A DNA stretch of 64,000 bases from a bacterium. GTDB taxonomy: Bacteria > Patescibacteriota > Minisyncoccia > Portnoybacterales > UBA2143. This document shows positions 35,488-60,865 of the stretch, in pieces (position 1 is the first letter of the stretch; the number at the start of each line of letters is the position of its first letter). The notes under the pieces are model-generated. The model worked only from the letters and a program-made list of their open reading frames with translations, did no database searches and had not been told where the DNA came from. Where the stretch lies: the NCBI GenBank assembly GCA_043818835.1, contig JBDRFK010000010.1, positions 9,507-73,506 on the forward strand. Direction: 5' to 3'. The position numbers and the translations under genes are program-made.

Positions 35488-36351
35488 ATGAAAATAATTG
35501 ATGGTAAAAAAATAGCAGATGAAATACTACTTGGCGTAAAAGAAAAAACCAAAGAAAAAAATCTGAAATTGGGTTTGGCTACTATTTTAATAGGCGATGA
35601 TTCTGCCTCGCATCTGTACGTATCATTAAAAGAAAAAGCAGCAAAGGAAATTGGTGTCGGTTTTAAAAAATATATTTTTTCAAATAATGTTGAAGAAAAA
35701 AGAATTATAGATTTAATTATAGAATTAAATATAGATAAGTCGGTAAATGGAATTTTAATTCAAATGCCTTTGCCAAATAATTTAGATGCGGATAAATTAA
35801 TATCTGCGATTGATTTCAAAAAAGATATAGATGGATTATCATCAAATAGCGATTTTGATTCACCATTTATTTTGGCTATTTGGGAAGCGTTGAAAAACAC
35901 AAAAGAAGATTTAAAAAATAAAAAAATATTCGCTTTAGTAAATTCTGGAATTTTTGGAGAAAAGCTCAAAGATTTTTTTAAAACTAAAAAATTGAGTTTG
36001 CGATATAGTGTTATTCCCGCTATACATCAAAGTACAGGACAGGCTTTCGCGAGAATCTGCAGTCTGGATTCCCGCTTTTCCGCCAGAGGGCGGACACGGC
36101 TTGAGAATGACATTACGAGAGAGGATGTCTTAATTACGGCATTGGGCTGTAAAAATTGCATTAAGAGTGATATGATTAAAAAAGGCGTGATTTTGATTGA
36201 CGGTGGTATTTCAAAATTTGATGAAAAAGTTGTCGGTGATGTAGACGCCAATAGCGTTACTCAAAAAGCCGGATGGCTGACACCAGTACCTGGAGGAGTA
36301 GGGCCGATAACTATAGCTATGCTTCTCAAAAACATTACTAAAGATTTATAA
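35488..36351 (+). CDS. folD: methylenetetrahydrofolate dehydrogenase/cyclohydrolase, carrying an in-frame ~30 aa insertion from a palindromic element (36030-36120)
   Basis: FolD-like overall. QSTGQAFARICSLDSRFSARGRTRLENDIT has no counterpart in FolD and is encoded by ...gattcccgcttttccgccagagggcggaca...gagaatgaca. Confidence 0.85.
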   Translation: MKIIDGKKIADEILLGVKEKTKEKNLKLGLATILIGDDSASHLYVSLKEKAAKEIGVGFKKYIFSNNVEEKRIIDLIIELNIDKSVNGILIQMPLPNNLDADKLISAIDFKKDIDGLSSNSDFDSPFILAIWEALKNTKEDLKNKKIFALVNSGIFGEKLKDFFKTKKLSLRYSVIPAIHQSTGQAFARICSLDSRFSARGRTRLENDITREDVLITALGCKNCIKSDMIKKGVILIDGGISKFDEKVVGDVDANSVTQKAGWLTPVPGGVGPITIAMLLKNITKDL

Positions 36352-36359
36352 TTAACACT

Positions 36360-36387
36360 CAAGGTCCGCCTTCAAGGTCGGACCTTG
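36360..36387. other. hairpin caaggtccg-N10-cggaccttg after folD, followed by an 11-bp direct repeat (gaccttgataa x2)
   Basis: Read directly; no T-run. Confidence 0.3.
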
Positions 36388-36412
36388 ATAAGACCTTGAT
36401 AACATAAAGAGT

Positions 36413-37930
36413 ATGGAATATATACCAACAATAGGATTAGAGATTCATTCAGAATTAAAGACAAAAAGTAAAATGTTTTGTCGGTCTTTGAATAATTCAG
36501 ATGAATCAAAACCAAATACTAATGTTTGTCCTGTTTGTATGGGACATCCAGGGACTTTACCTGTGGCCAATAAGCGAGCAATTAATTTGGTTATTAAGAC
36601 TGGCTTGGCCTTGAATTGTAAGATTAATAAGTTGTCCAAGTTTGATCGCAAAAATTATTTTTATCCAGATTTACCAAAAGGGTATCAAATTTCACAGTAT
36701 GATAAGCCACTGTGTTTTGAGGGATATTTAAATATTATTTCTCCTGTTCTGCGAGATTCTTCGGTCGCTCCACTTCCTCAGAATGACAAATTGAGAAAAA
36801 TACGAATTACTCGCATTCATTTAGAAGAAGATACAGGCAAATTAACTCATCCAAAGGGAGCTGATTATTCATTGGTGGATTATAATCGGGCGGGTGTGCC
36901 ATTGATGGAATTGGTAACTGAACCAGATATTACCTCGGGTAAAGAGGCTCGCGTATTTTGCGAAGAGTTGCAACTTATTTTACGTTATTTAAATGTTTCA
37001 GATGCAAATATGGAAAAGGGACAAATGAGATGTGAAGTTAATATTTCTATGGCGCCTGAAGGAATGCGCGGAACAAAGGTGGAGATTAAAAATTTAAATT
37101 CTTTTAGGGTCGTTGAAAAATCTATTGATTATGAGATTAAAAGGCAGATAGAAATATTAAATGATAGTAAAAAAATTATTCAAGAAACAAGGGGTTGGGA
37201 TGATAATAAACAAATAACTTTTTCACAGAGAATAAAAGAAGGAGCTAAGGATTATCGTTATTTTCCAGATCCTGATTTACCGACTTTAAGCATTAGTCAG
37301 GATGAAATAGATAATCTTAAAAGAGATATTACAGAATTACCACAATCACGACGTGAAAGATTTTTACAAGAATACAAAATACCCGAACAAGATATCAAAG
37401 TTTTGGTATCTAATAAATATTTGGCTAACTTTTTTGAACAGGCTGTTTCAGAATTAAAAACTTGGTTGAAAATAAAGAAGGTTGATATTTTGCCAACTGA
37501 CGGACAATCATTAATCAAGTTAACTGCTAATTACATTTTGACCGAATTGCAAAAATTATTATTAGTTTCAAAAAAAGGAATGGATGATTGTCGTGTTAGT
37601 CCAGAAAATTTTGCTGAGTTTATTACCTTAATAAAACAGGGAGAAATCTCTAGTTCTGCTGCGCAAGCTGTTTTAAAAGAAATGTTTGAAACGGGAGCTG
37701 ACCCATCACATATTATTGAAGAAAAAGGATTAAAACAAGTTAGTGATCAAGGAGCATTAGAAACAATTGTTGATCAAGTTATAAAAGACAATCCAGATTC
37801 TGTTAAAGATTTTAAGTCGGGGAAAGAAAATGCTTTACAGTTTTTAATTGGTAGAACCATGGCTGTTAGTAAGGGACAGGCTAATCCTCAGGTGGTTGGC
37901 GAGATTTTAAGAAAGAAATTGACTGACTAA
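36413..37930 (+). CDS. gatB: Asp/Glu-tRNA amidotransferase subunit B, carrying an in-frame half-element at 36745-36788
   Basis: GatB N-terminus (IGLEIHSELKTKSKMFC) and RIHLEEDTGK motif. Inserted segment ctgcgagattcttcggtcgctccacttcctcagaatgaca is near-identical to the right half of copy C. Confidence 0.9.
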   Translation: MEYIPTIGLEIHSELKTKSKMFCRSLNNSDESKPNTNVCPVCMGHPGTLPVANKRAINLVIKTGLALNCKINKLSKFDRKNYFYPDLPKGYQISQYDKPLCFEGYLNIISPVLRDSSVAPLPQNDKLRKIRITRIHLEEDTGKLTHPKGADYSLVDYNRAGVPLMELVTEPDITSGKEARVFCEELQLILRYLNVSDANMEKGQMRCEVNISMAPEGMRGTKVEIKNLNSFRVVEKSIDYEIKRQIEILNDSKKIIQETRGWDDNKQITFSQRIKEGAKDYRYFPDPDLPTLSISQDEIDNLKRDITELPQSRRERFLQEYKIPEQDIKVLVSNKYLANFFEQAVSELKTWLKIKKVDILPTDGQSLIKLTANYILTELQKLLLVSKKGMDDCRVSPENFAEFITLIKQGEISSSAAQAVLKEMFETGADPSHIIEEKGLKQVSDQGALETIVDQVIKDNPDSVKDFKSGKENALQFLIGRTMAVSKGQANPQVVGEILRKKLTD

Positions 37931-38794
37931 TTTTTCTGCTTCTTTGTAATCTTTTACCCATTTTATTCTTTTATCTCTTTTGAACCATGTTATTTGCCTT
38001 TTGGCGTATTGACGGGTATGTGATTTAATTTGCTCTATGTTTAACTCCGGAGTTAAACATAGAGTTATTTCCTTATAACCAATACCACTCATAGAAGGCA
38101 GGGTAGATGAATATTTTTTAAGTAAATTTCTTACTTCAGTAATTAAACCATCTTTAATCATTTTATCAACCCTCTTATCAATTCTTTGATCGAGAGTTTT
38201 TTTGTCTATTTTTAATCCAATTTGTAAAACATCAAAAAGTGGTTTACCTGTTCTTTTTTGTTCCGAAAAGGGTTTGCCAGTAGTAAGGCAAACTTCTAAG
38301 GCGCGAATTAGTCGTCGTTTATTATGAATATCAATTTTTTTGATAACGGCTGGGTCTAATTTTCTTAGCATTTTTAATAGTTCTATCAAATCTAACATTT
38401 CTAACTTTTTACGTAATTTGTGATTTGGTTTGACTTCTGGAATTTCTAAATTATCAACAATTGCTTGTATATATAATCCTGTTCCGCCTACAAGAAATGG
38501 TACTTTATTTCTTTGCTGTATATCTTTGATTTTTGAGATGGCCAGTTTCTTATATTGATTTAAGGCAAAATCTTGATTTGGATTTATAATATCAATTAAA
38601 TGATGAGTTATTTTTTGTTGTTCTTGTTTTGTTGGTTTGGCTGTGCCAATATTCATTTCTTTGTAAATTTGTCGTGAATCAGCGGAGACTATTTCACCTT
38701 CACTTTTGGCTGAAAACTGCTTAGCTAACTTTATCGCTAAACTCGTTTTTCCTGATGCGGTTGGACCTAAAATGACAATTAATTTGTTATCCAT
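37907..38794 (-). CDS. miaA: tRNA dimethylallyltransferase
   Basis: P-loop ILGPTASGKTSLAIKLA and IPT fold. Confidence 0.9.
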   Translation of the reverse strand: MDNKLIVILGPTASGKTSLAIKLAKQFSAKSEGEIVSADSRQIYKEMNIGTAKPTKQEQQKITHHLIDIINPNQDFALNQYKKLAISKIKDIQQRNKVPFLVGGTGLYIQAIVDNLEIPEVKPNHKLRKKLEMLDLIELLKMLRKLDPAVIKKIDIHNKRRLIRALEVCLTTGKPFSEQKRTGKPLFDVLQIGLKIDKKTLDQRIDKRVDKMIKDGLITEVRNLLKKYSSTLPSMSGIGYKEITLCLTPELNIEQIKSHTRQYAKRQITWFKRDKRIKWVKDYKEAEKLVSQFLS

Positions 38795-38971
38795 ATTGAC
38801 ACAGATTTAGAAATTATACATAATCTATATTAGACGTTCTGGTTCTTTTTTCATGGGGATGGACTGTGAGGCATAATAAACAATAATCAATCTGCCGAAT
38901 ATTGAAGATATATGGTATGCCTCACAGTTCTCCTTAGATGCATAAAAAATGCGTAAAAAGCCTCTTAAAAA

Positions 38972-40027
38972 TTAGGAGCGCTTTTTAATTTTATTTAATA
39001 TTATGGTTTTTCTTCTCTTTTTTTCGTGTGACGAAATATTATCTTTAAATTTTGATGCGACAGATTCTGGTCGTGGGGAATAACAAGCAGTATATATTTG
39101 AGTAAATTTCATCTCGTCTATTATTTTGATTGTGTTGTTGAATTGACTTTCAGTTTCTCCTGGAAAGCCGACAATAATATCTGTAGAAAATTTAGCTTCA
39201 GGTATTTTTTTAATTATCCTCTTTATCAAATTCTTATATTGATTAACTGTATAGCCTCGATTCATTTCTCTTAGAATTATATTATCGCCCGATTGAAGTG
39301 GTAAATGCAATTCTTTTGATATTTTTTCTTCTTGAGCAATGACATTAATCAGTTCATTAGACATATCTTTCGGGTGAGAAGTTAAGAATTTTATATTAAA
39401 GTTGCCGGGGATTTGACAGATTTTTTGTAGAAGCTCGGGAAAATATGTGTATTCTGATTTTGACTGGATTCTCGCTTTCGCGGGAATGGCAGAATGGGAT
39501 GCGGGAATGGCAGAGGAGAAATTATAACTATTCACATTTTGACCTAATAAAATTATTTCCGTATATTCTCTTTCTATCAAATATTTAACTTCTTCTAAAA
39601 TATCTTTTGTTGGCCTAGAAATTTCTCGATCACGAGTGTAGGGGACGGCGCAGTATGTGCAGAAATTGTTACAACCGTTCATTATCGGTAGATAGGCATG
39701 TTGTTGTGATTTATGTTTTGGTCTAAATTTAAAATCGATTATTGGCCATATTTCATCTACTTGCAATACTAATTGCTTTCTATCTTTATCTAGGAGACAT
39801 CCTGTCAAAATTATTTTCGTGTTTTTATTGATTTCTCTAATTTTTTCAATTTTGCTGTAAACTCGGTTAACAGCAGATTGTCTTACGGAGCACATATTAA
39901 TTATTATCAAATCAGCCTGTTCTGGTGTAGAAACAGGTATATATCCTTGATGTTCCAATTTTGTTGATAGTCTTTCGCTGTCAGATTCGTTCATTTGACA
40001 GCCATAAGTAATTATGTGGTAATGCAT
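38972..40027 (-). CDS. miaB: radical-SAM methylthiotransferase (MiaB/RimO family), with an in-frame element-derived segment at ~39466-39528
   Basis: UPF0004 N-domain (YGCQMNESDSE) and radical SAM CNNFCTYC. Inserted SAIPASHSAIPAKARIQ is encoded by gcgggaatggcagaatgggatgcgggaatggcag. Confidence 0.8.
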   Translation of the reverse strand: MHYHIITYGCQMNESDSERLSTKLEHQGYIPVSTPEQADLIIINMCSVRQSAVNRVYSKIEKIREINKNTKIILTGCLLDKDRKQLVLQVDEIWPIIDFKFRPKHKSQQHAYLPIMNGCNNFCTYCAVPYTRDREISRPTKDILEEVKYLIEREYTEIILLGQNVNSYNFSSAIPASHSAIPAKARIQSKSEYTYFPELLQKICQIPGNFNIKFLTSHPKDMSNELINVIAQEEKISKELHLPLQSGDNIILREMNRGYTVNQYKNLIKRIIKKIPEAKFSTDIIVGFPGETESQFNNTIKIIDEMKFTQIYTACYSPRPESVASKFKDNISSHEKKRRKTIILNKIKKRS

Positions 40028-40073
40028 AATTTAAGACTATCAGAATGGCAACTATTGGGCAATAGGATAAAAT

Positions 40074-40847
40074 ATGATATATTATATTTATATGGAACAA
40101 ATTTATTTATCAGTAATTATACCCGCATATAAAGAAGAAAAAAATATTAGTAGTACGCTTTTGGCTATTGATAAGTATTTATCAAAACAGAAGTATGCTT
40201 ATGAAATCATTGTCGTTAATGATGGTTCTAAAGATAAGACTGCAGCGATAGTGAATAAATTTAAGGATTTGGTTAAAAATCTCAGTTTAATTGATAATCC
40301 TGAGAATCATGGCAAGGGTTATGTTGTTCGACAGGGAATGTTATCAGCAAAAGGTGAATATCGTTTGTTTACTGATGCTGATAATTCTACTTCTATTGAA
40401 CATCTGGATAAGGTTTGGCTACATTTTGAGAAAGGCGCAGATTTGGTTATTGGTACACGAGATAAAAAAGATGCTGCTGGAGCAGGGCAGGCTGTGCCAC
40501 AATCATTTTTAAAAAGGTTGTTAGGCAATATGGGTAATGTTTTGATTCAGGTTTTGGCTGTTTGGGGGATTTGGGATACGCAATGTGGTTTTAAGGCTAT
40601 GACTGCGGAAGCGACAGAAGATATTTTTAGCCGAGCTATAATAGATCGTTGGGGATTTGATATTGAGATGTTGGCATTAGCAAAGAGATTAAAATACAAA
40701 ATAGCAATAATTCCGACTTATTGGGTTAATCGCGCGGAGAGTAGAGTTACCTTAGGGGGTTATTTAAAAACATTTAGTGAATTATTTAAAATAAAATGGA
40801 ATTTGATAAACGGTAAATATCATTTAAACAATAGAAAAGATGCCTAA
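40074..40847 (+). CDS. family 2 glycosyltransferase (polyprenol-phosphate sugar synthase-like)
   Basis: SVIIPAYKEEKNI...VVNDGSKDKT and a DxD motif. Confidence 0.8.
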   Translation: MIYYIYMEQIYLSVIIPAYKEEKNISSTLLAIDKYLSKQKYAYEIIVVNDGSKDKTAAIVNKFKDLVKNLSLIDNPENHGKGYVVRQGMLSAKGEYRLFTDADNSTSIEHLDKVWLHFEKGADLVIGTRDKKDAAGAGQAVPQSFLKRLLGNMGNVLIQVLAVWGIWDTQCGFKAMTAEATEDIFSRAIIDRWGFDIEMLALAKRLKYKIAIIPTYWVNRAESRVTLGGYLKTFSELFKIKWNLINGKYHLNNRKDA

Positions 40848-41871
40848 GGTTATTCAAAAAAACAAAATTAAAAAAAGTAAAAAAACGAATGCGTCTTCGG
40901 AACTTAGAATGGACTTAGTGTCCAATGATTGGGTGGTAATTGCTACGGGGCGGGCGCGCCGACCAGAAAGTTTTGCTGAGAACAAGAGAAACATAAACGT
41001 AGTTTCTGTTAAGGATTGTCCTTTTTGCGATCAAGAAGTATTAGATACATCAATCTTTAAAAGTTGTCGATCGGATGGTTCTTGGGTAGCGTTATCAATA
41101 CCGAATAAATATCCAGCATTTACGCAACAAAAAAGTTTGAATGAACGAAAAGAAGGACCAAACAGAATTATGGATGGTCATGGTTTTCATGAGGTGATAA
41201 TAACTTATGATCACGACAAACAGATGGCTCTTTTTTCGCAAGAAGATGTTAAGCGAGTAATTGATGTTTATCAGGCTCGTTATTTATCGTTGATGAATCA
41301 AGAGTTTATTAAATATATTTCAATCTTTCATAATCATGGTCAAGAGGCTGGAGCGTCGGTGGCGCATCCTCATTCGCAGTTAATTGCTATTCCAATTATA
41401 GATCCTGGTTTGCGGGGCAGTATTGATGGAGCTGAATCTTTCTATACAAGTCAGGGAAAGTGTGTTTATTGCGCTATGCTTGAATGGGACAAGAAAGATG
41501 GTCGTAGGATAATTTATGAAAATGAAAAGTTTATTGTAGTTTGTCCTTTTGCGCCGCAGGTGTCGTTTGAAGTGCGAGTGTATCCAAAAAATCATCAATC
41601 GCATTTTGAACAAATTAATGGTAAGGATAAAGGGTTGTTTGCTGATGCCTTGCATACAGCGCTTTACAAGATTTTTCAAGGATTAAAAGATCCGGCTTAT
41701 AATTTCTATATTCACACAGCGCCGTGTGACGGCGCGAATTATGATTTTTATCATTGGCATGTGAATATAATGCCAAAAACTGCTATTTGGGCTGGTTTTG
41801 AATTAGGCACAGGTGTTGAAATATCTACTATAGAACCCGAAAAAGCGGCAGAATTTCTTAGAAAGTTTTAA
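40840..41871 (+). CDS. galT: galactose-1-phosphate uridylyltransferase family protein
   Basis: Zn site CPFCDQE and HIT-like active site HPHSQLIA. Confidence 0.75.
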   Translation: MPKVIQKNKIKKSKKTNASSELRMDLVSNDWVVIATGRARRPESFAENKRNINVVSVKDCPFCDQEVLDTSIFKSCRSDGSWVALSIPNKYPAFTQQKSLNERKEGPNRIMDGHGFHEVIITYDHDKQMALFSQEDVKRVIDVYQARYLSLMNQEFIKYISIFHNHGQEAGASVAHPHSQLIAIPIIDPGLRGSIDGAESFYTSQGKCVYCAMLEWDKKDGRRIIYENEKFIVVCPFAPQVSFEVRVYPKNHQSHFEQINGKDKGLFADALHTALYKIFQGLKDPAYNFYIHTAPCDGANYDFYHWHVNIMPKTAIWAGFELGTGVEISTIEPEKAAEFLRKF

Positions 41872-41875
41872 TATT

Positions 41876-42343
41876 ATGTTAAGTTTTTTACCACCACAAA
41901 TTGTTGTTTTAATTGTTTCAATGTTACCAATTTTTGAGTTGCGCGGTGCTATTCCTTTAGCTATTGGAGTTTATCAATTGTCACCAGTTATGGCTTTTGT
42001 TTTATCTGTCATTGGTAATATTATTCCAATTATTTTTTTGCTTTTGTTTTTGGGTTGGATGTCGGAATATTTAAGTAAACATTCATATTATTTTAATCGT
42101 TTTTTTGCTTGGTTATTTGAAAGGACAAGAAAAAAGCACAATCATAAATTTGAAGTTTGGGGAAGTTTGGCCTTAATTGCTTTTGTGGCGATTCCGCTGC
42201 CAATGACAGGCGGATGGACGGGAGCCGTAGCGGCGTTTGTTTTCGGTATACCGTTTAAAAAAGCGTTACCATTAATTTCTTTAGGGATTGTTATTGCTGG
42301 GGTTATTGTAACCTTAGCAAGTATGGGAATGTTAGCAATTTAA
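41876..42343 (+). CDS. small polytopic membrane protein (unknown function)
   Basis: 155 aa with 4 TM helices. Confidence 0.5.
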   Translation: MLSFLPPQIVVLIVSMLPIFELRGAIPLAIGVYQLSPVMAFVLSVIGNIIPIIFLLLFLGWMSEYLSKHSYYFNRFFAWLFERTRKKHNHKFEVWGSLALIAFVAIPLPMTGGWTGAVAAFVFGIPFKKALPLISLGIVIAGVIVTLASMGMLAI

Positions 42344-42345
42344 TT

Positions 42346-42834
42346 ATGAATAAGCGAAAGGCATTTACATTGATAGAATTATTAGTAGTCATCGCTATTA
42401 TTGGTCTTTTGGCGTCTATTGTTTTGGTGTCGGTGAATAGCGTGCGCAAGAAAGCGAGAGATGCGAGAAGAAAAACTGATTTAAGACAGATAGTCACGGC
42501 GATGGAGTTATATTATGATAAATATGGAACTTATGTTATTCCAGGAACAGGACATACTGGCTGTAGTTGTGGATGGTTTAATTATCAAGCTGGTTCTTAT
42601 ACTTTGTCTATTGCTCATGGATTAGAAAATTCTGGTTTTATGGTTAAAGCTCCGCGAGATCCATTACTTTCTTCTGATAACCAGACACCACAGTATATGA
42701 AATATCAATGCCAGGATGGATTTTATGTTTATGCGATATTGGAAAATCCGAGTGCTGAAGATTTGGCTACATATAATAATGCAGGTTGTAAGCCTGGTTA
42801 TGGAATGAATTATGCGGTAGGGCATAATAATTAA
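42346..42834 (+). CDS. type IV pilin / pseudopilin
   Basis: MNKRKAFTLIELLVVIAIIGLLASIVLVSVNSVR; paralog of the ORF at 9440..9886. Confidence 0.85.
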   Translation: MNKRKAFTLIELLVVIAIIGLLASIVLVSVNSVRKKARDARRKTDLRQIVTAMELYYDKYGTYVIPGTGHTGCSCGWFNYQAGSYTLSIAHGLENSGFMVKAPRDPLLSSDNQTPQYMKYQCQDGFYVYAILENPSAEDLATYNNAGCKPGYGMNYAVGHNN

Positions 42835-42839
42835 AAATT

Positions 42840-43613: not shown

Positions 43614-43621
43614 TTTTTTTA

Positions 43622-43691
43622 TGTCATTTCCGCGAAAGCAGGATCCAGCGATAATCAATAATCTCTGGATTCCCAATCAAGTTGGGAATGA
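43622..43691. repeat. palindromic mini-element copy H (TGTCATTTCCGCGAAAGC...TTCCCAATCAAGTTGGGAATGATA)
   Basis: 70 bp filling the tpiA-pgk spacer. Confidence 0.7.
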
Positions 43692-43699
43692 TAAAGCAG

Positions 43700-47139: not shown

Positions 47140-47667
47140 AGTTCTTAGTAAATTAGTAAGCCGAATTCTGTTATACTATTTTGTCATTATCCGGTTTGAC
47201 TGGATAATCTAGAAATAATATAGATGATCATCTATCTGGGATTGATATTACTATCAACCTCTAGCGAGCTACTTGTCTTACCCCACAATAGTGGGATAGT
47301 TTGCTCTTGCACCGGGCAGGGTTTGTCACGCTATTACGTTTCCGTAAAGCGAGAAGGGTCTTAATCCTTCACTTTTCATCCTTACCAAGTTTATGTCATT
47401 CTGAACGGAGCGAAGCGGAGTGAAGAATCTCGTAGAACTTGCCACGGGATTCTTCGGGCTTTGCCCTCAGAATGACGACTGGGCGGTTTTGTTTCTGTGA
47501 CACTTTCCCTAGACTTTGCTTTAAACAATTTGTCTCGAGAACAAATTACTTAAAACTACTTCCGACGGATGTTATCCGTTGCCCTTTTTTTATGGTGTTC
47601 GGACTTTCCTCCCCGCACCACTTTTTTTGAAAAGTAGTGGAGGCAATCATCTTATTTACTAAGAACT
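47140..47667 (-). ncRNA. rnpB: RNase P RNA (bacterial type A) carrying a palindromic mini-element at the P12 position
   Basis: Minus strand shows P1 pairing (AGUUCUUAGUAAAU/AUUUACUAAGAACU), P3 hairpin, GGGGAGGAAAGUCCGAACACCAUA...GGGCA (P4 5' strand), CACAGAAACAAAACCGCC, GGUAAGGAUGAAAAGUGAAGG, CCCGGUGCAAGAGCAAACUAUCC and ACAGAAUUCGGCUUAC (P4 3' strand). All match conserved M1 RNA blocks in order. Confidence 0.8.
47394..47476. repeat. palindromic mini-element copy I, located inside rnpB between the ACCGCC and GGUAAGG blocks (P12)
   Basis: TGTCATTCTGAACGGAGCGAAGCGGAGTGAAGAATCTCG...GGGATTCTTCGGGCTTTGCCCTCAGAATGACG. Confidence 0.8.
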
Positions 47668-51789: not shown

Positions 51790-52979
51790 GAATTGATGCT
51801 CGATTTTACGGGCCTAAAAAACAAAAAGGACTTGGTCGTTATCTACAGGAATTAATTACCGAGTTAGAAAAAATAGATACAAATAATGAGTTTGTTATTT
51901 TTTTGCGTTGTGAAAATTGGAACGACTATCAACCAATAAACAATAATTTCAGAAAAGTTTTGGCAGATTATCGTTGGTACACTTTTGCCGAACAAATTAT
52001 GATGCCGATTAAAATTTGGCGAGAGGATATAGATTTAATGCATTTTCCTCATTTTAACATTCCGATTTTTTGCCCAACTAAATTTGTAGTTACAATTCAT
52101 GACTTGATTTTAAAACATTTTCCAACACGACGCGCTTCAACGCTTGGGCCGATAATGTATAGGATTAAAAACTGGGGATATGAGATTACAATTTGGTTGG
52201 CGGTCAGGAGGTCGCAAAAAATCATTGCTGTTTCAGAATTTACCAAACGAGATATTTTGAATAACTTTAATGTTGCTGATAACAAAATTAAAGTTATTTA
52301 TGAGGGGGTGTTATCTCCTGTCATTCCCACTCCCTTTGTCATTCCCGCTAAAGCGGGAATCCAGAATGTAGATTTACGCTTTTCCGCCAAAGGGCGGACA
52401 TGGCGCGGGAATGACAAAGAAGAAGGTAGGAGTAACGAAATATACTTGCTTTATGTAGGCAATGCATATCCTCACAAAAATTTAGAAAGATTGATTTTGT
52501 CGTTTGATAAATTATCAGGTGATTATCCTGATTTAAAATTAGTTTTAGTTGGCGAATTAGATTATTTTTACAAACGGCTTCAGGAATATGTTTCAGGTTT
52601 TAATCCTAAGACCACAAATAATATAATTTTTACTGATCTCGTGTCGGACAATGAATTAAATAATTTATACAAAAATGCTTCTTTATATGTTTTTCCTTCA
52701 GAATACGAAGGGTTTGGGTTACCGCCCTTAGAGGCGATGTCTTGTGGCTTGCCAGTAGTTTCTTCTAATGCCAGTTGTTTGCCAGAAATTTTAGGTAATT
52801 CGGCAATTTATTTTAATCCGGTCAGTGTTGATGATATGGTCGACAAAATTAAAAAAGTTTTTAATAATAGAGCTATAAGAAAGGATTTAATCGAGAAAGG
52901 ATATCAGCAAATTAAAAAATATAATTGGCAGAAAATGACAAAAGCAATAAGGAGGATCTATGCCGAAGAGAAGATATGA
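51780..52979 (+). CDS. family 4 glycosyltransferase with in-frame palindromic-element insertion (52319-52415)
   Basis: [24 protein letters not shown]. Inserted [33 protein letters not shown] is encoded by tgtcattccc...cgcttttccgccaaagggcggaca...gggaatgaca. Confidence 0.8.
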
Positions 52980-53300: not shown

Positions 53301-56300
53301 ATGCCGAGCTATTCCGTAAAAAATAAAAAAAGGCTTGTCTTTTCGGCGTTGTTTGATGTCCGTCCAACAACACAAGTTGGTGATTTAGATGTGGTAAAAA
53401 TAAGACAATCTAAACGAATTTTGGATTTACGTGGTCTTAAAAATGCGCAAGAGGAAGAATTGCGACGTAAGGCGATAAGAATAGATTTAATTGAAGAACC
53501 AATAGATCCAAACAAAGGATTAAGCGCAGGTGATCAAATAATATTAGATCGCTTAGAAGCTGATATGGGCACAGATGAAACTGTGCAAAGAGTGTTTCAA
53601 TTATCTAAGATAGAAGAATCAATAAATTCGCAGACACAACCAGCGCCAACACAAATACAAGAAGTTGCAAAAAAAACCTTTATTACACCTAAGCCCGAGG
53701 CAAATATAAAAAAAGAAATTCTTAAAGCAAAACCAAAGAAGCTAACATATCAAATTTCAGAAGAAGAATTAAATAATTTAGATAATGAGTTTGGATTTGA
53801 AACAAATAACAAAAGTACTATCAATAGGCCAGTTTTGGTTAATAGTGAAGAAGATGAGATTGTTTCGTCAGCTGTGGCTCCTCGCAATGACAGTGAAGGT
53901 GAGGGTGATAACGGAGAAAAGAATGCAGTAAAGGAATATTCTAACATACCTGCTATTGAACCAATTAGGAGTCCAATTTTAGTCAGTGATCAGTGTATAG
54001 AAAGATTGCCAACAAAAGAAGAAGTTCTGGCTGATTTAGAAAAAATAGATAATTTAGATATAATACTGAACGATGATCAAAATGTTTTAATAGAAGATAA
54101 TAATGGGAAAGACTTTGTTGTTAGTGCTATTGTCGGCGACCAAAGCAGGATAAAGATAATTAAAAAGCAATTGGAATCAAAAAATATTTCTGATTTAGAA
54201 AAGATTTATTTTCAGGAAGATGGTAGAGATAGTGTATTGATGGATAAAAATATCTTTCAGAAACCGTCTCCAAGAATTAATAATGATCAGGATGAGGTAT
54301 TTGAAGAAGAACCACAGAGTAAATTACAATGGAAAACTCAGTTGGCTAACCATAGTCAATCTTATTGGCCACGATCTTTGACAGGCTTTATAATTACGGG
54401 CATATTAGTGGCTTTAATAATTCCTGGGGCAACGCTGTTAAGTCGAGGATTGGCGATAAAAAGCGAGGTTGTTAATAACGGCGTGGCAGCTATCGGGAAT
54501 TTAATAGCAGCCAAACATTCGGTTGAAGAAACTAATTGGGAGGTGGCTGAGAGAGATTTTGGTTTGGCGCATCAAAACTTTATTCAAGCTAATTCCGAAA
54601 TTGGTAAATTAGGTAAAATAACATTGGGTATTTTGGAACATATGCCGGGCGGTTCTTTAGTTTCGTCTGGTAATCATCTGGTTGGTGTCGGAGAAAATCT
54701 GGCAGAGGCTGGTCAGAAATTATCTTCAGCGGTTGGTTTATTTTCTTTTGACACATGGCTAAGTGAAATTAATATTTCTGAAGAGGACGACAAAGATAAC
54801 AAGACATTAGCAGTAAAAAATAATTCTCTTACTGATATTTTGAGTTCTGGTTATGGTAATTTGGAAGATGCTTTGGAAAATATTCATTTGGCTAATGATG
54901 AATTAAATAAGGTAGATGTTAATTCTTTACCTGTAGAAATGCAAGGAGAAGTGCTTTTATTGAAAGATAAATTGCCGGTTGTGGAAGAGTTATTGAACGG
55001 CGCGGTATCATATTCAAAAGTTCTATTAAAAATTATGGGGAATGACAATCCGCGTCAATATCTATTGTTGTTTCAGAACAACGGCGAGGCGCGAGCGACG
55101 GGTGGCTTTATCGGTACGTATGGGTTATTAAAAATTTATCAAGGTGAGATAAGGCAGCTTTTTATTGATGGTGTTTTTAATGCTGATGGGCAATTGCGAG
55201 AGAAAATTATTCCACCAAAACCAATACAAAAAATTAGCACGGCATGGTCAATGCATGATGCTAACTGGTTTGCCGATTTTCCAACTTCTGCAGAAACAGT
55301 GTCTTGGTTTTATGAAAAAACTGGTGGGCCGACAGTTGATGGTGTGCTCAGTTTTACGCCAATAGTTATAGAGCGTTTACTGGCTATAACTGGCGAGATT
55401 GCTATGCCCGAATATGATGTAATTTTAACGGCTGATAATTTTGTAGAGTTGATACAATACAAAGTAGAAATAGATTATGACAAAGAACTTAATCGTCCTA
55501 AAAAGATTTTGGCTGATTTTGCTCCTAAATTTATTGAAAGATTGAATCAATTGCCTAATGATAAACAAAAAGAAGTAATCAAGGTAATTATAGACTGTTT
55601 AGTCGAAAAGCATATAATGTTTTATTTTAAAGATAGTGATTTAGAAGAATTTACTGTTAATGAGGGTTGGGGTGGACAAGTTTTAGATGCTGATAAAGAT
55701 TATCTTAGTGTTATATCATCCAATATTAATGGGTTTAAGACTGATAGAGTAATTAAGGAGACAATAAATCATCAGGCAGAAATTCAAGATGATGGTTCTA
55801 TAATTGATACGGTGCAAATTACACGTAAGCACGAGGGTGGTGATTTGGAATATGATTGGTGGAATAGGGTTAATGCAAACTATCTAAGAGTTTATGTTCC
55901 TCTTGGCAGCGAACTAATTTCTGCTGAAGGTCATAGTTTAGAATCTTATAATTCACCGATTGACTATGAGGAAAATAATTTCAAAACATATCCATCACTG
56001 AGTCTGATAGAGGATACGCAAAAAACAGATAAAAAGACTGGGACACAAATATTTACTGAAAGTGGCAAAACAGTGTTTGCTAACTGGGCGTATGTTAGTC
56101 CTGGGGAAACTGTGGTTTTGACGTATAAATACAGATTGCCATTTAAAATTAACTTGACCAAATCGGCTGATAGTTATAGTTTGATAGCGCAGAAACAATC
56201 TGGAAGTTTAGGAAGTAATTTTAAATATTCTTTACGGTATCCAGCTGATTGGAATGTATCTTGGCAATATCCGAACGATTTAACGTTATCATCAGGAATT

Positions 56301-56360
56301 GTGAATTATGTTGGTGATCTTGCAAAGGACAAGTTTTTAGGTGTAACTTTTAGTTTTTAA
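53301..56360 (+). CDS. large envelope-associated protein, DUF4012-like (low-complexity N-terminus, one TM helix, ~650 aa extracytoplasmic domain)
   Basis: TM helix FIITGILVALIIPGATLL. Motif LLLFQNNGEARATGGFIGTYG is characteristic of the DUF4012 family (recalled, not searched). Sits next to murJ. Confidence 0.55.
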   Translation: MPSYSVKNKKRLVFSALFDVRPTTQVGDLDVVKIRQSKRILDLRGLKNAQEEELRRKAIRIDLIEEPIDPNKGLSAGDQIILDRLEADMGTDETVQRVFQLSKIEESINSQTQPAPTQIQEVAKKTFITPKPEANIKKEILKAKPKKLTYQISEEELNNLDNEFGFETNNKSTINRPVLVNSEEDEIVSSAVAPRNDSEGEGDNGEKNAVKEYSNIPAIEPIRSPILVSDQCIERLPTKEEVLADLEKIDNLDIILNDDQNVLIEDNNGKDFVVSAIVGDQSRIKIIKKQLESKNISDLEKIYFQEDGRDSVLMDKNIFQKPSPRINNDQDEVFEEEPQSKLQWKTQLANHSQSYWPRSLTGFIITGILVALIIPGATLLSRGLAIKSEVVNNGVAAIGNLIAAKHSVEETNWEVAERDFGLAHQNFIQANSEIGKLGKITLGILEHMPGGSLVSSGNHLVGVGENLAEAGQKLSSAVGLFSFDTWLSEINISEEDDKDNKTLAVKNNSLTDILSSGYGNLEDALENIHLANDELNKVDVNSLPVEMQGEVLLLKDKLPVVEELLNGAVSYSKVLLKIMGNDNPRQYLLLFQNNGEARATGGFIGTYGLLKIYQGEIRQLFIDGVFNADGQLREKIIPPKPIQKISTAWSMHDANWFADFPTSAETVSWFYEKTGGPTVDGVLSFTPIVIERLLAITGEIAMPEYDVILTADNFVELIQYKVEIDYDKELNRPKKILADFAPKFIERLNQLPNDKQKEVIKVIIDCLVEKHIMFYFKDSDLEEFTVNEGWGGQVLDADKDYLSVISSNINGFKTDRVIKETINHQAEIQDDGSIIDTVQITRKHEGGDLEYDWWNRVNANYLRVYVPLGSELISAEGHSLESYNSPIDYEENNFKTYPSLSLIEDTQKTDKKTGTQIFTESGKTVFANWAYVSPGETVVLTYKYRLPFKINLTKSADSYSLIAQKQSGSLGSNFKYSLRYPADWNVSWQYPNDLTLSSGIVNYVGDLAKDKFLGVTFSF

Positions 56361-56366
56361 TTATCA

Positions 56367-57965
56367 ATGATAAAAAAACTTCTTAATAATAAAATAAGCA
56401 CTATTACTATGGCCGCTGTCGTTTTGGGAGCGGCTTCTTTTTTGAGTCGTCTTATTGGTCTTTTTAGAGATAGAATTCTATTGAATATGTTTGGTACGGG
56501 TAGAGAGTTGGATATATATTATGCCGCTTTTCGTATTCCAGATTTTGTTTACGCTTTTTTTATCTTAGGTGTTATCTCGGCAGGCTTTGTTCCTGTGTTC
56601 ATTCATTATCTTCAAAAAGATAAAGAAAAATCGTGGTATTTGGCTAATAATATTTTGAATCTAATTGCTATTGTTTTAATAGTGGTTTGTTTAGTTTTAG
56701 TATTTTTTGTTCCTTATATTGTTCACTTGGTGGCACCCGGGTTTGAAAAAGAGAGCGCAGATATGACAATCAAATTGGCTCGGATTATGTTTTTAAGTCC
56801 GATATTTTTAGGCATCAGCGCTGTTTTCAGTGGGATTTTACAAAGCTTCCGTCGGTTTCTTATATATTCATTAGCGCCGATTATGTATAATTTGGGAATA
56901 ATTTTTGGCGCATTATTTTTGGTAAAATATTTTGGTTTAATTGGTTTGGCTTACGGCGTCGTTCTGGGTGCTTTTTGTCATATGATGATTCAAATTCCGA
57001 CAGCAATTTTTTGTGGGTATAAATGGCGTCCAATATTAAACTTAAAATTTGATGGATTGAAAAGAGTATTAAAGTTAATGCCACCACGGTTTTTGAGTTT
57101 GATTTTTTATCAAATTACTTTCTGGGTTTTTACGGCTATTGCGTCGTTATTGGCAGTGGGGAGCATAGTAATTTATAATACGGCTTATAATATTTTTAGT
57201 TTTCCATTAGGTATATTTGCCTTATCTTATGCAGTGGCGGCTTTTCCGAAATTGTCGGAAAGCGCACAAAAAAAAGATAAGCGAGAATATGTTCGGACTT
57301 TTTCGGCTACCGCACGACAAATATTGTTCTTTATTATTCCAGTTGCGGTTTTGTTTATTATCTTAAGATTACAAATAATTCAGGTGCTATTTTCTGGAGG
57401 TAAGTTTAGTTGGCAAGATACAATGCTGATTGGACAGACTTTGATGTATTTTTGTATTGGTCTTTTTGCAGAAGGTTTGGCTTTGTTTCTGTTGCGTGGG
57501 TTTTTTGCATGGGAAGACACAATAACGCCCTTTGTATTGGCGTTTATTACTATGGTAATTCGTATAGCCAGTGGTTGGTATCTGACCAGATTTTTTGGGG
57601 TTGCTGGTTTGTCTTTAGGATTTGCTATTGGTAGTATTTGTTTTTTTGTGTTGCTTTTAATTTGTTTAAGAAAAAAGGTGGGATTATTGGATGGTAAAAA
57701 TATTTTTAATTCAGCAATTAGAATTGCTATTGCAACATTATTTGCGGGTGGCGTGTCATATTTTATATTAAATCTTTTGACTATAAAAATTCCGGCTATT
57801 GTTCCAATAATGATGCTTTTGAAAGGTGGTATCGCAGGCATTTTAGGTGTTATTATCTATTTTGTTTTTGCTTGGATTTTAAAAATTCCAGAATTTTATT
57901 TATTTGTTTCCTCTTTATCAAGAAAATTGTCTATAAAAAAACTTCCGCCACGACAGGAGATATAG
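56367..57965 (+). CDS. murJ: lipid II flippase MurJ
   Basis: 532 aa, 14 TM helices; N-terminus ASFLSRLIGLFRDRILLNMFGTG...YYAAFRIPDF is typical of MviN/MurJ. Confidence 0.9.
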   Translation: MIKKLLNNKISTITMAAVVLGAASFLSRLIGLFRDRILLNMFGTGRELDIYYAAFRIPDFVYAFFILGVISAGFVPVFIHYLQKDKEKSWYLANNILNLIAIVLIVVCLVLVFFVPYIVHLVAPGFEKESADMTIKLARIMFLSPIFLGISAVFSGILQSFRRFLIYSLAPIMYNLGIIFGALFLVKYFGLIGLAYGVVLGAFCHMMIQIPTAIFCGYKWRPILNLKFDGLKRVLKLMPPRFLSLIFYQITFWVFTAIASLLAVGSIVIYNTAYNIFSFPLGIFALSYAVAAFPKLSESAQKKDKREYVRTFSATARQILFFIIPVAVLFIILRLQIIQVLFSGGKFSWQDTMLIGQTLMYFCIGLFAEGLALFLLRGFFAWEDTITPFVLAFITMVIRIASGWYLTRFFGVAGLSLGFAIGSICFFVLLLICLRKKVGLLDGKNIFNSAIRIAIATLFAGGVSYFILNLLTIKIPAIVPIMMLLKGGIAGILGVIIYFVFAWILKIPEFYLFVSSLSRKLSIKKLPPRQEI

Positions 57966-57997
57966 AGTCCTCGTAGAGTACTCCACGAGGACTCTAT
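57962..57997. repeat. 36-bp palindrome ATAGAGTCCTCGTAGAGTACTCCACGAGGACTCTAT (second copy of the element at 13226)
   Basis: Differs from the 13226 copy by a single central T/C. Overlaps the murJ stop codon. Confidence 0.8.
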
Positions 57998-58053
57998 TAT
58001 GCATAGACTAATTATGCCATCTACGCTATTATTTCGAGAAAGAATTTTTACTA

Positions 58054-58152
58054 TGTCATCCTGAGGCAGTAGCCGAAGGATCTCGTGGGAAAAACATAAT
58101 CGTTGTTTGTCTACGGGATTGCCGAGATCCCTACTGGTCACTCGCAATGACA
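58054..58152. repeat. palindromic mini-element copy J (TGTCATCCTGAGGCAG...CACTCGCAATGACA)
   Basis: 99 bp; internal gggattgccgagatccc is shared with copy A. Confidence 0.8.
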
Positions 58153-58234
58153 GAAGAAAGAGAGTTTTTTGGTTCACGTTGTGTGATTTAATTTATAACG
58201 AAATCGCCGCGGGCTTTGCCCGCGGCGAGATGTT

Positions 58235-59014
58235 TTACATATCAAGATTATTACATATATCTCCCAATAAGATATTTTGATTGTTAAGAAGAGTTATTAT
58301 ATCACATAGATTGTTCAAAATTTCTTGATGCTTGAAAAACATCCTGGCAAGGTTTGACAAAGTATTTCTGAAATTCGCTACTTTTGATATATCAGAAATC
58401 ATAAACTTGTTATTCCCAATTTCAGATAATTTTAATGAATTATCTTTTTTATTTTCTGAAAACACAAACAAACAAGTGAATAATTTTGTTAAATTATCTA
58501 AGAACTTTGGTTGAATTTCTTTTTCGTGATCCAAGTCTTTATGGAGTAATATTCTTAGGAGCATGTCTATGCCGGCCTTATCTTCTTGAAATATTCCTTT
58601 GTCAAAAACAGGATAAATAGTAGTATTAATCTTTAAGGTAATCAGATCAAAGTGTCTATTAAAACCTCCTTTAATGATTGATTGTTCTTTAAAATGAAAT
58701 TCACCTAAAAAGGAATTATTGTCTATAAGAATACTATCAATATTATCACTACCATTATAACTAAGAAAATTTACGAATGTTTTTTCTAACATATTTCTTA
58801 TAGATAGTTTAGTTGCAATTTCAACTTCTGCTGGTATGTTTTTATGTTTTATCCAGTTAAAAATTTCTGTTAATTGTTTGAAACTTTTCAAATCTTCTCC
58901 GTCTAACAATAAAATATTTTTGTAAAATATTTTATCTATAATTACATTGCTTTCATTACCGACAATTTTAATAGCCATTCTATCCTCCTTATATATAAAA
59001 ATGTTAAGTTGCAA
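58235..59014 (-). CDS. hypothetical protein (259 aa, no recognisable domain)
   Basis: ORF only; AT-rich and island-like. Flanked by repeat elements. Confidence 0.45.
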   Translation of the reverse strand: MQLNIFIYKEDRMAIKIVGNESNVIIDKIFYKNILLLDGEDLKSFKQLTEIFNWIKHKNIPAEVEIATKLSIRNMLEKTFVNFLSYNGSDNIDSILIDNNSFLGEFHFKEQSIIKGGFNRHFDLITLKINTTIYPVFDKGIFQEDKAGIDMLLRILLHKDLDHEKEIQPKFLDNLTKLFTCLFVFSENKKDNSLKLSEIGNNKFMISDISKVANFRNTLSNLARMFFKHQEILNNLCDIITLLNNQNILLGDICNNLDM

Positions 59015-59050
59015 TTTATTTTAGAATAAAGTATGATTAGGTATATGTCA

Positions 59051-60865
59051 ATGAAAAATATTAGGAATTTTTGTATCATTTCTCATATTGATCACGGGAA
59101 GTCAACTTTGGCTGACCGGCTTTTGGAATTGACTGGGACTGTTGAGAAGAGAAAAATGCAAAATCAAGTTTTGGATATGATGGATTTGGAAAGAGAGAAG
59201 GGGATTACGATTAAACTACAGCCAGCAAGGATGGAGTATCAACTGCCACGTCATTCTGAGGGAGCGAAGCGACCGAAGAATCTTGCGCTTATTCGGCGGG
59301 ATTCTTCACTTTTAGCTCAGAATGACGGACAACAGGATGACAAATTCATTCTCAATTTAATTGATACACCGGGTCATGTTGATTTTACTTACGAAGTTTC
59401 AAGAAGTTTAGCAGCGGTGGAGGGCGCTGTTTTATTGGTGGATGCAACACAAGGAATACAGGCGCAGACATTGGCAAATCTGCATTTAGCGCAGAAGCAG
59501 GGTTTGGTGATTATTCCTGTGATCAACAAAATTGACGCGCCTGCGGCGCGCCCAGATGATATTGCTTTAGAAGTTGCGCAATTATTGGATATTGAACCAG
59601 ACGGGATTATTAGAATATCAGCAAAAAATGGAATAAATATAGAACAAGTTGTTGAGGCAATAGTTGAAAAAATTCCAGCGCCAGAAGGTGATGAGAATCA
59701 ACCATTGCAAGCCCTAATTTTTGATTCTAATTATGATTCTTATCAAGGTGTCATTGCTCATGTTCGTATTAAAAACGGGCAAGTAAAAAAAGACCAGAAA
59801 ATTTTTATGAAAGCGTCGCAGGCTACTTCTGGTATTATTGGCATAGGAATTTTTAAACCACGACCTCAAGAGAAAGAAAATTTAACAGCGGGTGAGATTG
59901 GATATATTGCCACAGGATTAAAGGACATCAATATTTGTCGGGTGGGTGATACGATTACTTTGAATAATAATATAAAAGCATTGTCTGGATATCAAGAATC
60001 AAAACCGATGGTCTATGCTAGTTTTTTTCCTATTGATGGTGATGATTTTGATTTGTTGCATGATGCTTTAGGTAAACTGAAAATGAATGATGCGTCTTTG
60101 GATTTTGAATTAGAATCTTCTGATGCTTTGGGGCGTGGTTTTCGTTGTGGATTTTTAGGCTTGTTACATTTAGAAATTATCGGCGAGCGACTACGTCGTG
60201 AATATGATTTAAATTTAGTTATAACAGCGCCTTCGGTATATTATCGTTATACTGATAAATCTAAAACAGGTATGGAAGAGCCGTGGGTAAAATTGGAAGT
60301 TGTTTCTTCTAATGAATATTTAGGAGCAGTAATGAAATTATTAACAGAAGCGGAAGGAGAATATGTTAATACGGAATATTTAAATCCAGAAAAAGTATTA
60401 CTGACCTATAAAGCGCCATTGCGCGAAATTATGACTGATTTTTATGATAAATTAAAAAGCGCTACATCGGGCTATGCTTCTTTAGCTTATCAATTAGACA
60501 ATTATCGTGAAGCAGATTTGGTTAAGCTGGATATTGTAGTGGCTGGGGAAAAGGTAGAAGCTTTTTCCAGATTTGTGGCGCGCAATAAATCTTATCGTGA
60601 AGCAAAATTATTAGTCGAAAAACTAAAAGATTTAATTCCTTCTCATCAATTCAGTATTCCAATTCAAGGTATGGTGGGCAGTAAGGTGATTGCTCGTGAG
60701 ACAATTAAAGCGTTTAGAAAAGATGTTATTGCTGGTCTTTATGGTGGTGACTATACACGCAAAAGAAAACAATTAGAAAAGCAGAAAAAAGGTAAGAAAC
60801 GATTAAAACAATTCGGCAAAGTTTCTATTCCGCAAGAAGTATTTTTAAAGGCTTTAAAAAAATAA
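59051..60865 (+). CDS. lepA: elongation factor 4 (LepA) with a 26-codon in-frame palindromic-element insertion (59249-59326) in the G domain
   Basis: MKNIRNFCIISHIDHGKST, DTPGHVDF and the LepA C-terminal domain. PRHSEGAKRPKNLALIRRDSSLLAQND lies between G1 and G3 and has no counterpart in E. coli LepA. Confidence 0.9.
   Translation: MKNIRNFCIISHIDHGKSTLADRLLELTGTVEKRKMQNQVLDMMDLEREKGITIKLQPARMEYQLPRHSEGAKRPKNLALIRRDSSLLAQNDGQQDDKFILNLIDTPGHVDFTYEVSRSLAAVEGAVLLVDATQGIQAQTLANLHLAQKQGLVIIPVINKIDAPAARPDDIALEVAQLLDIEPDGIIRISAKNGINIEQVVEAIVEKIPAPEGDENQPLQALIFDSNYDSYQGVIAHVRIKNGQVKKDQKIFMKASQATSGIIGIGIFKPRPQEKENLTAGEIGYIATGLKDINICRVGDTITLNNNIKALSGYQESKPMVYASFFPIDGDDFDLLHDALGKLKMNDASLDFELESSDALGRGFRCGFLGLLHLEIIGERLRREYDLNLVITAPSVYYRYTDKSKTGMEEPWVKLEVVSSNEYLGAVMKLLTEAEGEYVNTEYLNPEKVLLTYKAPLREIMTDFYDKLKSATSGYASLAYQLDNYREADLVKLDIVVAGEKVEAFSRFVARNKSYREAKLLVEKLKDLIPSHQFSIPIQGMVGSKVIARETIKAFRKDVIAGLYGGDYTRKRKQLEKQKKGKKRLKQFGKVSIPQEVFLKALKK

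Follow-up and report, generated by a model that had tools for sequence, protein, structure and literature searches.

A dispersed GTCAT-ended repeat family lies in frame in conserved protein genes and in the RNase P RNA gene of a Patescibacteria genome

We analyzed a 64-kb stretch of DNA (hereafter "the window") which, judged by its best matches, is part of the genome of a patescibacterium (CPR, for Candidate Phyla Radiation; Parcubacteria-like). In a scan of genome contigs the closest relatives of its GatB were CPR metagenome-assembled genomes throughout, at no more than 69% identity. The window is AT-rich (GC ~0.34), and a sensitive scan found in it 13 copies of a repeat of the form GTCAT...ATGAC, which together amount to 993 nt, or 1.55% of the sequence; this census covers the 64-kb window of one genome. 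Six of the copies lie in protein open reading frames (ORFs), one lies in the gene for RNase P RNA and six are intergenic (Table 1).

Table 1. Positions of the host genes and of the 13 repeat copies in the window.
Feature	Coordinates	Strand	Setting	Details
folD host ORF, 287 aa, reading frame open across the element	35488-36351	+		NCBIfam
folD element, subtype B (GTTATTCCCGC...GAGAATGAC)	36010-36111	+	folD	34 aa, peptide VIPAIHQSTGQAFARICSLDSRFSARGRTRLEND
gatB host ORF, 505 aa	36413-37930	+		NCBIfam
gatB right-half truncated element, subtype A	36740-36787	+	gatB	peptide SPVLRDSSVAPLPQND; fold z +0.54
TRAM-less MiaB-family methylthiotransferase host ORF, 351 aa	38972-40027	-		NCBIfam, MiaB/RimO family
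miaB left-half element, subtype B (two GCCATTCCCGC ends and GAAAGCGAGAATCCAG)	39464-39514	-	miaB	peptide SAIPASHSAIPAKARIQ
GT4 (GT-B fold) glycosyltransferase host ORF, 411 aa	51744-52979	+		NCBIfam
GT4 full element, subtype B, with an additional left-end copy	52320-52415	+	GT4	32-residue peptide; fold z -5.78
DUF4012 right-end remnant (GTGGCTCCTCGCAATGAC)	53874-53891	+	ORF 53301-56360	peptide AVAPRND
lepA (EF4) host ORF, 610 aa	59033-60865	+		NCBIfam
lepA full 77-nt element, subtype A	59250-59326	+	G-domain beta2-beta3 hairpin	fold z -4.71
RNase P RNA gene (class A)	47141-47662	-		Rfam RF00010, 195 bits; 522 nt vs 367-position model
rnpB full element, subtype A, 82 nt	47395-47476		P12 hairpin loop	fold z -4.92
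Intergenic full copy (GTCATTGCGAG...CTCGCAATGAC)	23260-23365		beside tRNA cluster	fold z -4.35
Intergenic single 26-nt hairpin module with additional right end	26889-26933		pheT-gyrB	fold z -5.09
Intergenic full copy	29863-29945		nusG-rplK	fold z -2.58
Intergenic full copy (GTCATTCCGAGCGAAGCGAGGAATC...)	35397-35476		glyA-folD	fold z -5.59
Intergenic degenerate full copy	43623-43692		tpiA-pgk	fold z -3.05
Intergenic full copy	58055-58151		murJ to convergent gene upstream of lepA	fold z -2.0

The original prediction, made from the sequence of the window, had assigned five peptides in the folD, gatB, miaB, GT4 and lepA ORFs to such an element. All five are present, each in an uninterrupted ORF, and NCBIfam identified the hosts. 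Insert peptides are 16-34 aa long, and predicted peptides spanning their junctions include ...MEYQLPRHSEGAK... and ...LAQNDGQQDDK.... The boundaries first drawn were revised in part: the folD element begins 18 nt upstream of its earlier placement at 36028-36117, with GTTATTCCCGC at 36010 (peptide VIPA...), and the gatB and miaB copies proved to be half or truncated elements; the GT4 and lepA inserts had been delimited at 52320-52418 and 59246-59326. The sixth coding copy, the remnant in the DUF4012 ORF, had been missed, and sits in the non-conserved N-terminal part, in a disordered region. To call the hosts "essential genes", as the prediction did, is loose wording, since model bacteria can do without lepA and miaB. 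In the MiaB-family enzyme the C-terminal TRAM domain is missing (351 aa vs about 440-460 aa); that it is a pseudogene was rejected, because the short form is common to its nearest CPR relatives.

Several lines of evidence place the inserts in a dispersed palindromic repeat family, beyond what chance would produce. The heptamer GAATGAC occurs 19 times in the window, where 6.2 occurrences are expected, and none of 100 shuffles reached 19. GTCAT-type terminal inverted repeats (11 nt, at most one mismatch) form seven pairs in the 64 kb, while control 5-mers average 0.2; by the same definition there are 17 pairs in other loci, after two chance matches were discarded. Copies are also related to one another at the DNA level. 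The folD and GT4 copies, rightly predicted to be of one subtype, align over 64 nt with 78% identity, the gatB copy matches intergenic positions 29907-29947 over 41 nt with 90% identity, and its arm is 89% complementary to the left arm of the lepA copy over 37 nt. GC content of the coding inserts is 0.51-0.57, against ~0.34 for the window as a whole. GTCAT elements are about eight times denser in the window than in 1.26 Mb of other CPR loci. No Rfam family covers the elements, either at the gathering score or at expect values (E) up to 5.

The architecture of the family was worked out from the 52 termini of 26 elements, drawn from the window and from 14 other loci (15 sources in all). GTCAT is found at all 52 termini, preceded by T in 39 and by C in 11. 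At 46 of the 52, a pentamer ATxyz is paired to its own reverse complement 11-50 nt away, with C following the complement in 43; in shuffles such local closure is seen at 2.6 termini on average and never at more than 9. Each element end is therefore a stem-loop, GTC-[AT...AT]-C. Six compensated stem variants occur (ATTCT, ATTGC, ATTCC, ATCCT, ATGCT and ATTTC), so that the stems covary between genomes. A full element thus consists of a variable spacer flanked by two inverted hairpin modules, GTC-[ATxyz ... z'y'x'AT]-C, in the manner of a REPIN doublet. Single modules and half copies are present as well, among them the 26-nt singlet at 26889, and the GC-rich family spans about 26-106 nt.

The copies differ in their capacity to fold as single-stranded DNA. 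Intergenic, rnpB, lepA and GT4 copies have z-scores from -2.0 to -5.8, while the folD, gatB, miaB and DUF4012 copies, at -1.3 to +0.5, fold no better than shuffles. In the folD copy the left end is degenerate and the potential to form a hairpin is gone (z -0.37). Scores near zero are thus found in four of the six coding copies and in none of the seven elsewhere (Fisher p = 0.02). The four are decayed or truncated, which shows, in part, that hairpin potential is lost inside genes. The description of the coding inserts as palindromic consequently stands for lepA and GT4 and fails for the other four.

To establish whether the inserts are extra sequence, the proteins were compared with orthologs from 80 loci (gatB), 81 loci and 120 proteins (lepA), 38 (miaB), 119 (folD) and 119 (GT4). 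The nearest relatives are without each insert, and the inserts are, on this alignment evidence, additional and lineage-specific, as had been proposed. The four nearest of the 80 CPR GatB orthologs (64-69% identity) read NIGN-KKI where the window's protein has 16 more residues; against Thermotoga maritima GatB (3al0_B) the insert shows as a gap of 13 columns within a hairpin, with RIHLEEDTGK following eight residues on. The LepA insert falls between the GITIK strand and DTPGH, with residues 72-101 unaligned between residues 70 and 73 of Thermus thermophilus EF4 (5imq_B), and the nearest homologues (P0242, P0243, P0245 and P0246; 75-77% identity) have a turn of 2-6 residues there. In MiaB the insert occupies the loop after GQNVNSY, a 14-column gap against Bacteroides uniformis MiaB (7mjz_A), and the nearest relatives again do without it. 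The corresponding segment of FolD, a loop of the NADP domain, has 63 residues, compared with mostly 27-40 in the 119 homologues. The stretch of GT4 from YEG to YLLYVG links two Rossmann domains and varies from 29 to 72 residues among homologues. A scan for closer relatives with empty sites yielded, beyond the GatB matches in genome contigs mentioned above (at most 69% identity), LepA matches of up to 57% identity in metagenomes, where the search was swamped by conserved patterns; no contig came up when the LepA and FolD sequences of the window were looked up exactly.

AlphaFold2 models were made for two of the proteins that carry inserts, FolD and GT4. The FolD model has a mean predicted local distance difference test score (pLDDT) of 89.9 and a predicted template-modelling score (pTM) of 0.87, and Foldseek matched it to FolD 3p2o with a template-modelling score of 0.85; the two 10-residue blocks at 181-200, between a strand (171-175) and a helix (204-210), have pLDDT values of 55 and 50. 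The GT4 model (mean pLDDT 88.2, pTM 0.86; the top Foldseek matches are GT4/GT-B structures) has pLDDT below 50 at residues 197-229, and its strands E182-184 and E234-238 bracket a stretch, 185-233, that is devoid of secondary structure. These predictions, together with the gaps in the alignments to 3al0_B, 5imq_B and 7mjz_A, support the view that the inserts occupy fold-compatible positions (hairpin turns, loops or a linker) whose length differs from ortholog to ortholog. The loop positions put forward in the original prediction are borne out to that extent, and the loops may be exposed at the surface.

No gene is split by any of the 13 copies in the window. Each of the six coding copies is in frame and free of stops, and we argue that they would therefore be translated rather than excised or bypassed. 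The prediction had gone further, proposing that the element itself was selected to avoid stops. We rejected an element built to be stop-free, because the number of stop-free frames per copy matches that of composition-preserving shuffles: the lepA copy has one of six frames open, the one in use, where 1.6 are expected, and intergenic copies have 1-3 of six open, where 0.95-2.4 are expected. Element lengths (77, 80, 82, 83, 97 and 106 nt) are not multiples of three, and the frame varies by site, the left end being read as GTC ATT (VI) or xGT CAT (xH) and the right end as AAT GAC (ND) or ATG ACx (MT). Seven of the 13 copies lie outside the protein-coding 88.6% of the window (binomial p = 2e-4), which amounts to a roughly four-fold enrichment in the remaining 11%. 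The simplest reading of these data is that open frames are better explained by filtering at the level of the host than by design of the element.

The family has invaded a structural RNA too. In the cmscan alignment the rnpB element falls between model positions 136 and 137 of the class A RNase P RNA, where it extends the P12 hairpin.

Elements of the same type were found in several of the same loops in other CPR lineages. Three FolD homologues, P0026 (locus L161), P0005 (L282) and P0070 (L283), carry GTCATTGCGAG-, GTCATTCTGAG- and GTCATCCTGAG-type elements, respectively, which begin at most 3 nt from the insertion point in the window and differ in right junction and frame. The linker of GT4 is likewise occupied by GTCATTGCGAG-type copies in P0126 (L284) and P0177 (L285), with other junctions and frames. 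More than 12 additional residues occur in the LepA hairpin of 27 of the 120 best homologues, ten of which have GTCAT-type peptides, such as VIASEAKQS...SRNDK and SHPERSEGS...PQNDR. LepA homologues at 75-77% identity are either empty or, in one case (P0244, 75%), occupied by a GTCAT-type insert of a subtype different from that in the window. At another site in miaB, locus L007 has a 134-nt copy in frame. Repeats of unrelated families also occupy these loops elsewhere in CPR, with peptides such as NYKSQITNKF, KVRPS...RSDL and RDSP...GTVP (miaB in L001 and L036/L054; lepA in L082/L084; GT4 in P0142, P0149, P0174 and P0176; LepA in P0321, P0348 and P0350). From these comparisons in-frame insertion of repeats looks to be general in CPR proteins.

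The original prediction had named homologous segments at the same positions in orthologs from unrelated phyla as a finding that would count against it. Within CPR such segments do exist, but their subtypes, junctions and frames differ, and the nearest relatives are empty; we therefore regard the pattern as recurrent insertion and not as ancestral sequence. An alternative, which we consider unlikely, is that each site was hit once in the distant past, and that the present scatter reflects many precise losses together with turnover, for example by gene conversion between copies. Long palindromes are established to be prone to deletion, the folD left junctions fall within 3 nt in four lineages, and several LepA inserts share SHPE(R/Q)SEGS...QNDR and may form one clade. 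However, ATTCC, ATTGC, ATTCT and ATCCT stems are found at one and the same site, the right junctions lie 4-24 nt from the conserved GCTGAT with differing frames (ND vs MT, VI vs xH), and among the LepA homologues of 75-77% identity the site is empty or, once, filled by another subtype.

The superfamily extends well beyond CPR. A degenerate pattern for the 26-nt module was matched in at least 120 IMG/VR contigs (L162-L281), mostly of high GC (median 0.63) and with typical doublets, and a representative doublet matched replicons of Novosphingobium, Methylosinus and Methylobacterium, in which it is unannotated. At least 40 doublet places were found on the 1.76-Mb replicon of Novosphingobium resinovorum (NZ_CP017076.1) alone. 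The superfamily, being present in replicons of Alphaproteobacteria and in viral contigs, is therefore not specific to CPR, and it may move on phage. Pairs of modules 1.3 kb apart in the viral contigs were considered as an insertion sequence (IS)-like parent and rejected, since they face outwards and are neighboring elements. Nor did the loci examined, in a search that was not genome-wide, contain an ORF bracketed by inward-facing ends 0.7-2.5 kb apart. The E. coli RayT transposase, used as a query over 160 related loci, gave one weak match, in a locus outside CPR.

We think it probable that this CPR genome has been colonized by GC-rich, non-autonomous palindromic repeats, of which the copies in genes have been kept only at permissive loops. 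Insertions would occur widely; the copies that survive lie preferentially in intergenic DNA. Within genes, survival would require a net length that is a multiple of three, a stop-free frame and a permissive loop, and surviving copies would be translated as additional loop residues, then decay or become truncated and lose their hairpin potential. Elsewhere in CPR, further subtypes of the family occupy the same permissive loops. The elements presumably spread as selfish DNA by means of an enzyme that acts in trans and reads the conserved GTCAT and hairpin ends; the most plausible candidate, by analogy with REP/RAYT and IS200/IS605 systems, would be a single-strand HUH/Y1, RAYT-like transposase. 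The clustering of insertions in hot-spot loops we infer to reflect selection on the host protein rather than targeting, although insertion may be aimed at recurrent sites rather than merely filtered. A broader proposition, tentative and on balance doubtful, is that a single GTCAT-hairpin superfamily, common to Alphaproteobacteria and phage-like contigs, is a general and undescribed source of loop insertions in Patescibacteria that strikes the same protein and RNA sites again and again.

A number of observations weigh against colonization followed by host filtering. Junctions of the 26 elements have no direct repeats, and hence no target-site duplication. The sole target signal is the T or C before GTCAT (T in 39 of 52), with no further conserved target; GTCAT/ATGAC was rejected as a target motif, neither sequence being present at the empty, CPR-like lepA sites. 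Four independent folD insertions start within 3 nt of each other, which could mean targeting instead of filtering. No transposase was recognized with Pfam among the ten unassigned ORFs of the window, and E. coli RayT had no match in the window or the CPR loci (within 3.3 Mb of DNA) and no homologue on the family-bearing replicons of Novosphingobium and Methylosinus. Translation of the inserts we infer from conservation of frame only, low pLDDT within an insert is no proof of surface exposure, and the 64 kb are all of the genome that was sampled.

It is improbable that the coding copies have been domesticated, as loops or as DNA or RNA hairpins with a selected function such as partner binding, translation pausing or an RNase site. 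Such a function would explain why the same LepA, FolD and GT4 loops are occupied repeatedly across CPR. In the FolD model the element-derived LENDITR takes up the helix before the strand VLITA, and the GTC ATT end supplies V-I where orthologs without an insert have hydrophobic residues after the conserved Tyr. Yet the nearest relatives manage without the inserts, whose subtype, frame and length vary between lineages; the inserts are predicted to be disordered, hairpin potential has been lost in four of the six coding copies, and it is the intergenic copies that are over-represented.

Far less credible is the idea that the segments are never translated, being removed from the mRNA (as a mini-intron or by a bulge-helix-bulge-like process) or bypassed like the byp elements of yeast mitochondria. 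Highly stable hairpins can arise from the lepA and GT4 copies, and introns in rRNA and tRNA genes are known in CPR genomes. However, segments that are excised or bypassed would not be constrained to be in frame and stop-free, as all six coding copies are even though a single copy may have as few as one of its six frames open. In four of the copies a hairpin is impossible, and there is no match to an intron or any other Rfam family at E up to 5; hallmarks of introns and inteins are absent to the extent that no Rfam intron family matches at this threshold and inserts of 16-34 aa are far below intein size. That the inserts are assembly chimeras at repeats, or that their hosts are decaying pseudogenes, is equally hard to credit: the source is a metagenome-assembled genome and the neighboring ligA is frameshifted, but orthologous sequence resumes in frame on both sides of every insert, identical proteins are deposited at NCBI (P0001, P0121, P0241), analogous inserts occur in many independent JGI, ENA and NCBI assemblies, and catalytic motifs and confident folds are kept.

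The window holds other repeats and features. A second, unrelated repeat family consists of AAGTTCC/AAGTTAT heptamers at 25796-25822 (pheT), 2507-2533 (intergenic) and 13698-13724 (ligA); in PheT it is read in frame as KFQVLSSKFQV. A third type is a 37-nt perfect-type palindrome, ATAGAGTCCTCGTAGAGTACTCTACGAGGACTCTAT, with two copies, 13225-13261 and 57962-57998, that are 97% complementary; one lies, on the opposite strand, next to where dnaE starts, the second overlaps the murJ end, and both may be terminator-like. Further palindromes lie in the folD-gatB spacer at 36356-36395 (CAAGGTCCGCCTTCAAGGTCGGACCTTGA) and in the miaB-miaA spacer at 38795-38971 (CTGTGAGGCATA...TATGCCTCACAG). The gene for NAD-dependent DNA ligase, ligA, is split, just upstream of the KxDG adenylation motif, into two overlapping frames (13392-13745 and 13676-15424). 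The frame changes at TTA AAA AAC, which is a canonical -1 slippery heptamer (A_AAA_AAC) and is followed by (AAGTTCC)x3 at 13698-13724; one added A in the A6 run would also restore the frame. The split must stem from an error of assembly or in a homopolymer, from a genuine frameshift or from programmed slippage. A 119-nt inverted stretch, 71% complementary, is common to two genes for type IV pilin-like proteins, at 9440-9886 (-) and 42346-42834 (+), and encodes the same N-terminal prepilin helix in both (MN.KKAFTLIELLVVIAIIGLLASIVLVSVNSVR). A possible peptide-modification cluster occupies 18306-22221, where a radical SAM/SPASM gene (19447-20451) stands amid small family-less ORFs, a weak peptidase-MA-like ORF and a DUF6624 protein; the ORF at 17590-18129 has weak HEPN-like matches.

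CPR bacteria have small, streamlined genomes, known for insertions in rRNA and proteins that lack an explanation. A dispersed hairpin repeat accounts for several of the protein insertions and for one expansion of RNase P RNA, and offers a testable origin for lineage-specific loops. It also points to one reason for spurious "hypothetical protein" calls and for noise in marker-gene alignments used for CPR phylogeny. The inserts map out, in nature, where conserved enzymes tolerate insertion, and they extend the "coding palindrome" phenomenon of Rickettsia to a second, unrelated group with reduced genomes.

The Rickettsia palindromic elements (RPEs; Ogata et al. 2000 and 2002), as outlined in PMC10969869, are in-frame palindromes at fold-compatible sites in conserved genes of a reduced genome. 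By the same outline (PMC10969869) they are short selfish palindromes that lie in frame in unrelated conserved genes, where they are translated as additional peptide, as well as in intergenic DNA, with subfamilies and with older copies in decay; the GTCAT family, its inserts presumably translated too, is like them in these respects. In-frame palindromic inserts are found here in six open ORFs whose orthologs are without them, so the analogy drawn in the original prediction is apt, and the sites appear fold-compatible from gaps in alignments to PDB structures and from low-pLDDT inserts in confidently modeled cores; a conserved stop-free frame, as expected of a coding palindrome, was not found. 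The hosts differ (Alphaproteobacteria there, Patescibacteria here), as do the lengths (roughly 100-150 nt vs about 26-106 nt), and the present elements are GC-rich in an AT-rich genome, are built of two hairpin modules with GTCAT ends and belong to a superfamily common to distant high-GC bacteria and viral contigs. Homology to the RPE families is unlikely in view of phylum, length and GTCAT anatomy, which were compared by description; the family is RPE-like in behavior, and we claim no RPE membership for it. The GC clusters of yeast mitochondria and the translational-bypass (byp) elements are likewise GC-rich palindromic mobile inserts in protein genes of an AT-rich reduced genome. Byp elements, however, disrupt the frame, and the ribosome skips them, whereas the coding copies here keep the frame and are stop-free.

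REPINs and the RAYT-associated repetitive extragenic palindromes (REPs) share with the GTCAT family modules that are imperfect palindromes, a conserved 5' motif beside the stem, inverted doublets along with singlets, and covarying stems (PMC3337134); of the modules examined here, 46 of the 52 termini form such palindromes, and a 26-nt singlet occurs. A further likeness is a dense and mostly intergenic placement, often between co-directional genes (PMC3337134). The foot motif is GTAG in REPs but GTCAT at all 52 termini here, and REPs are extragenic by definition, whereas six of the 13 copies in the window are in ORFs and one is in rnpB. [quoted passage not shown] In-frame fusions and copies in RNA genes are on record for MITEs (PMC5896051), and QMITE2, compared by description only, has a small REP-like form also in Alphaproteobacteria (PMC10969869, PMC5896051). 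Unlike MITEs, the GTCAT elements lack a target-site duplication, and the loci examined yielded no parent IS whose ends match. A literature search found no paper in which in-frame insertions in CPR are connected with REPs, MITEs or palindromic elements, and a search for the sequence strings of the elements returned unrelated primer matches only. Taken against these systems, the GTCAT family is an RPE-like phenomenon in a new phylum, to which it adds recurrent hot-spot loops and an insertion in RNase P RNA.

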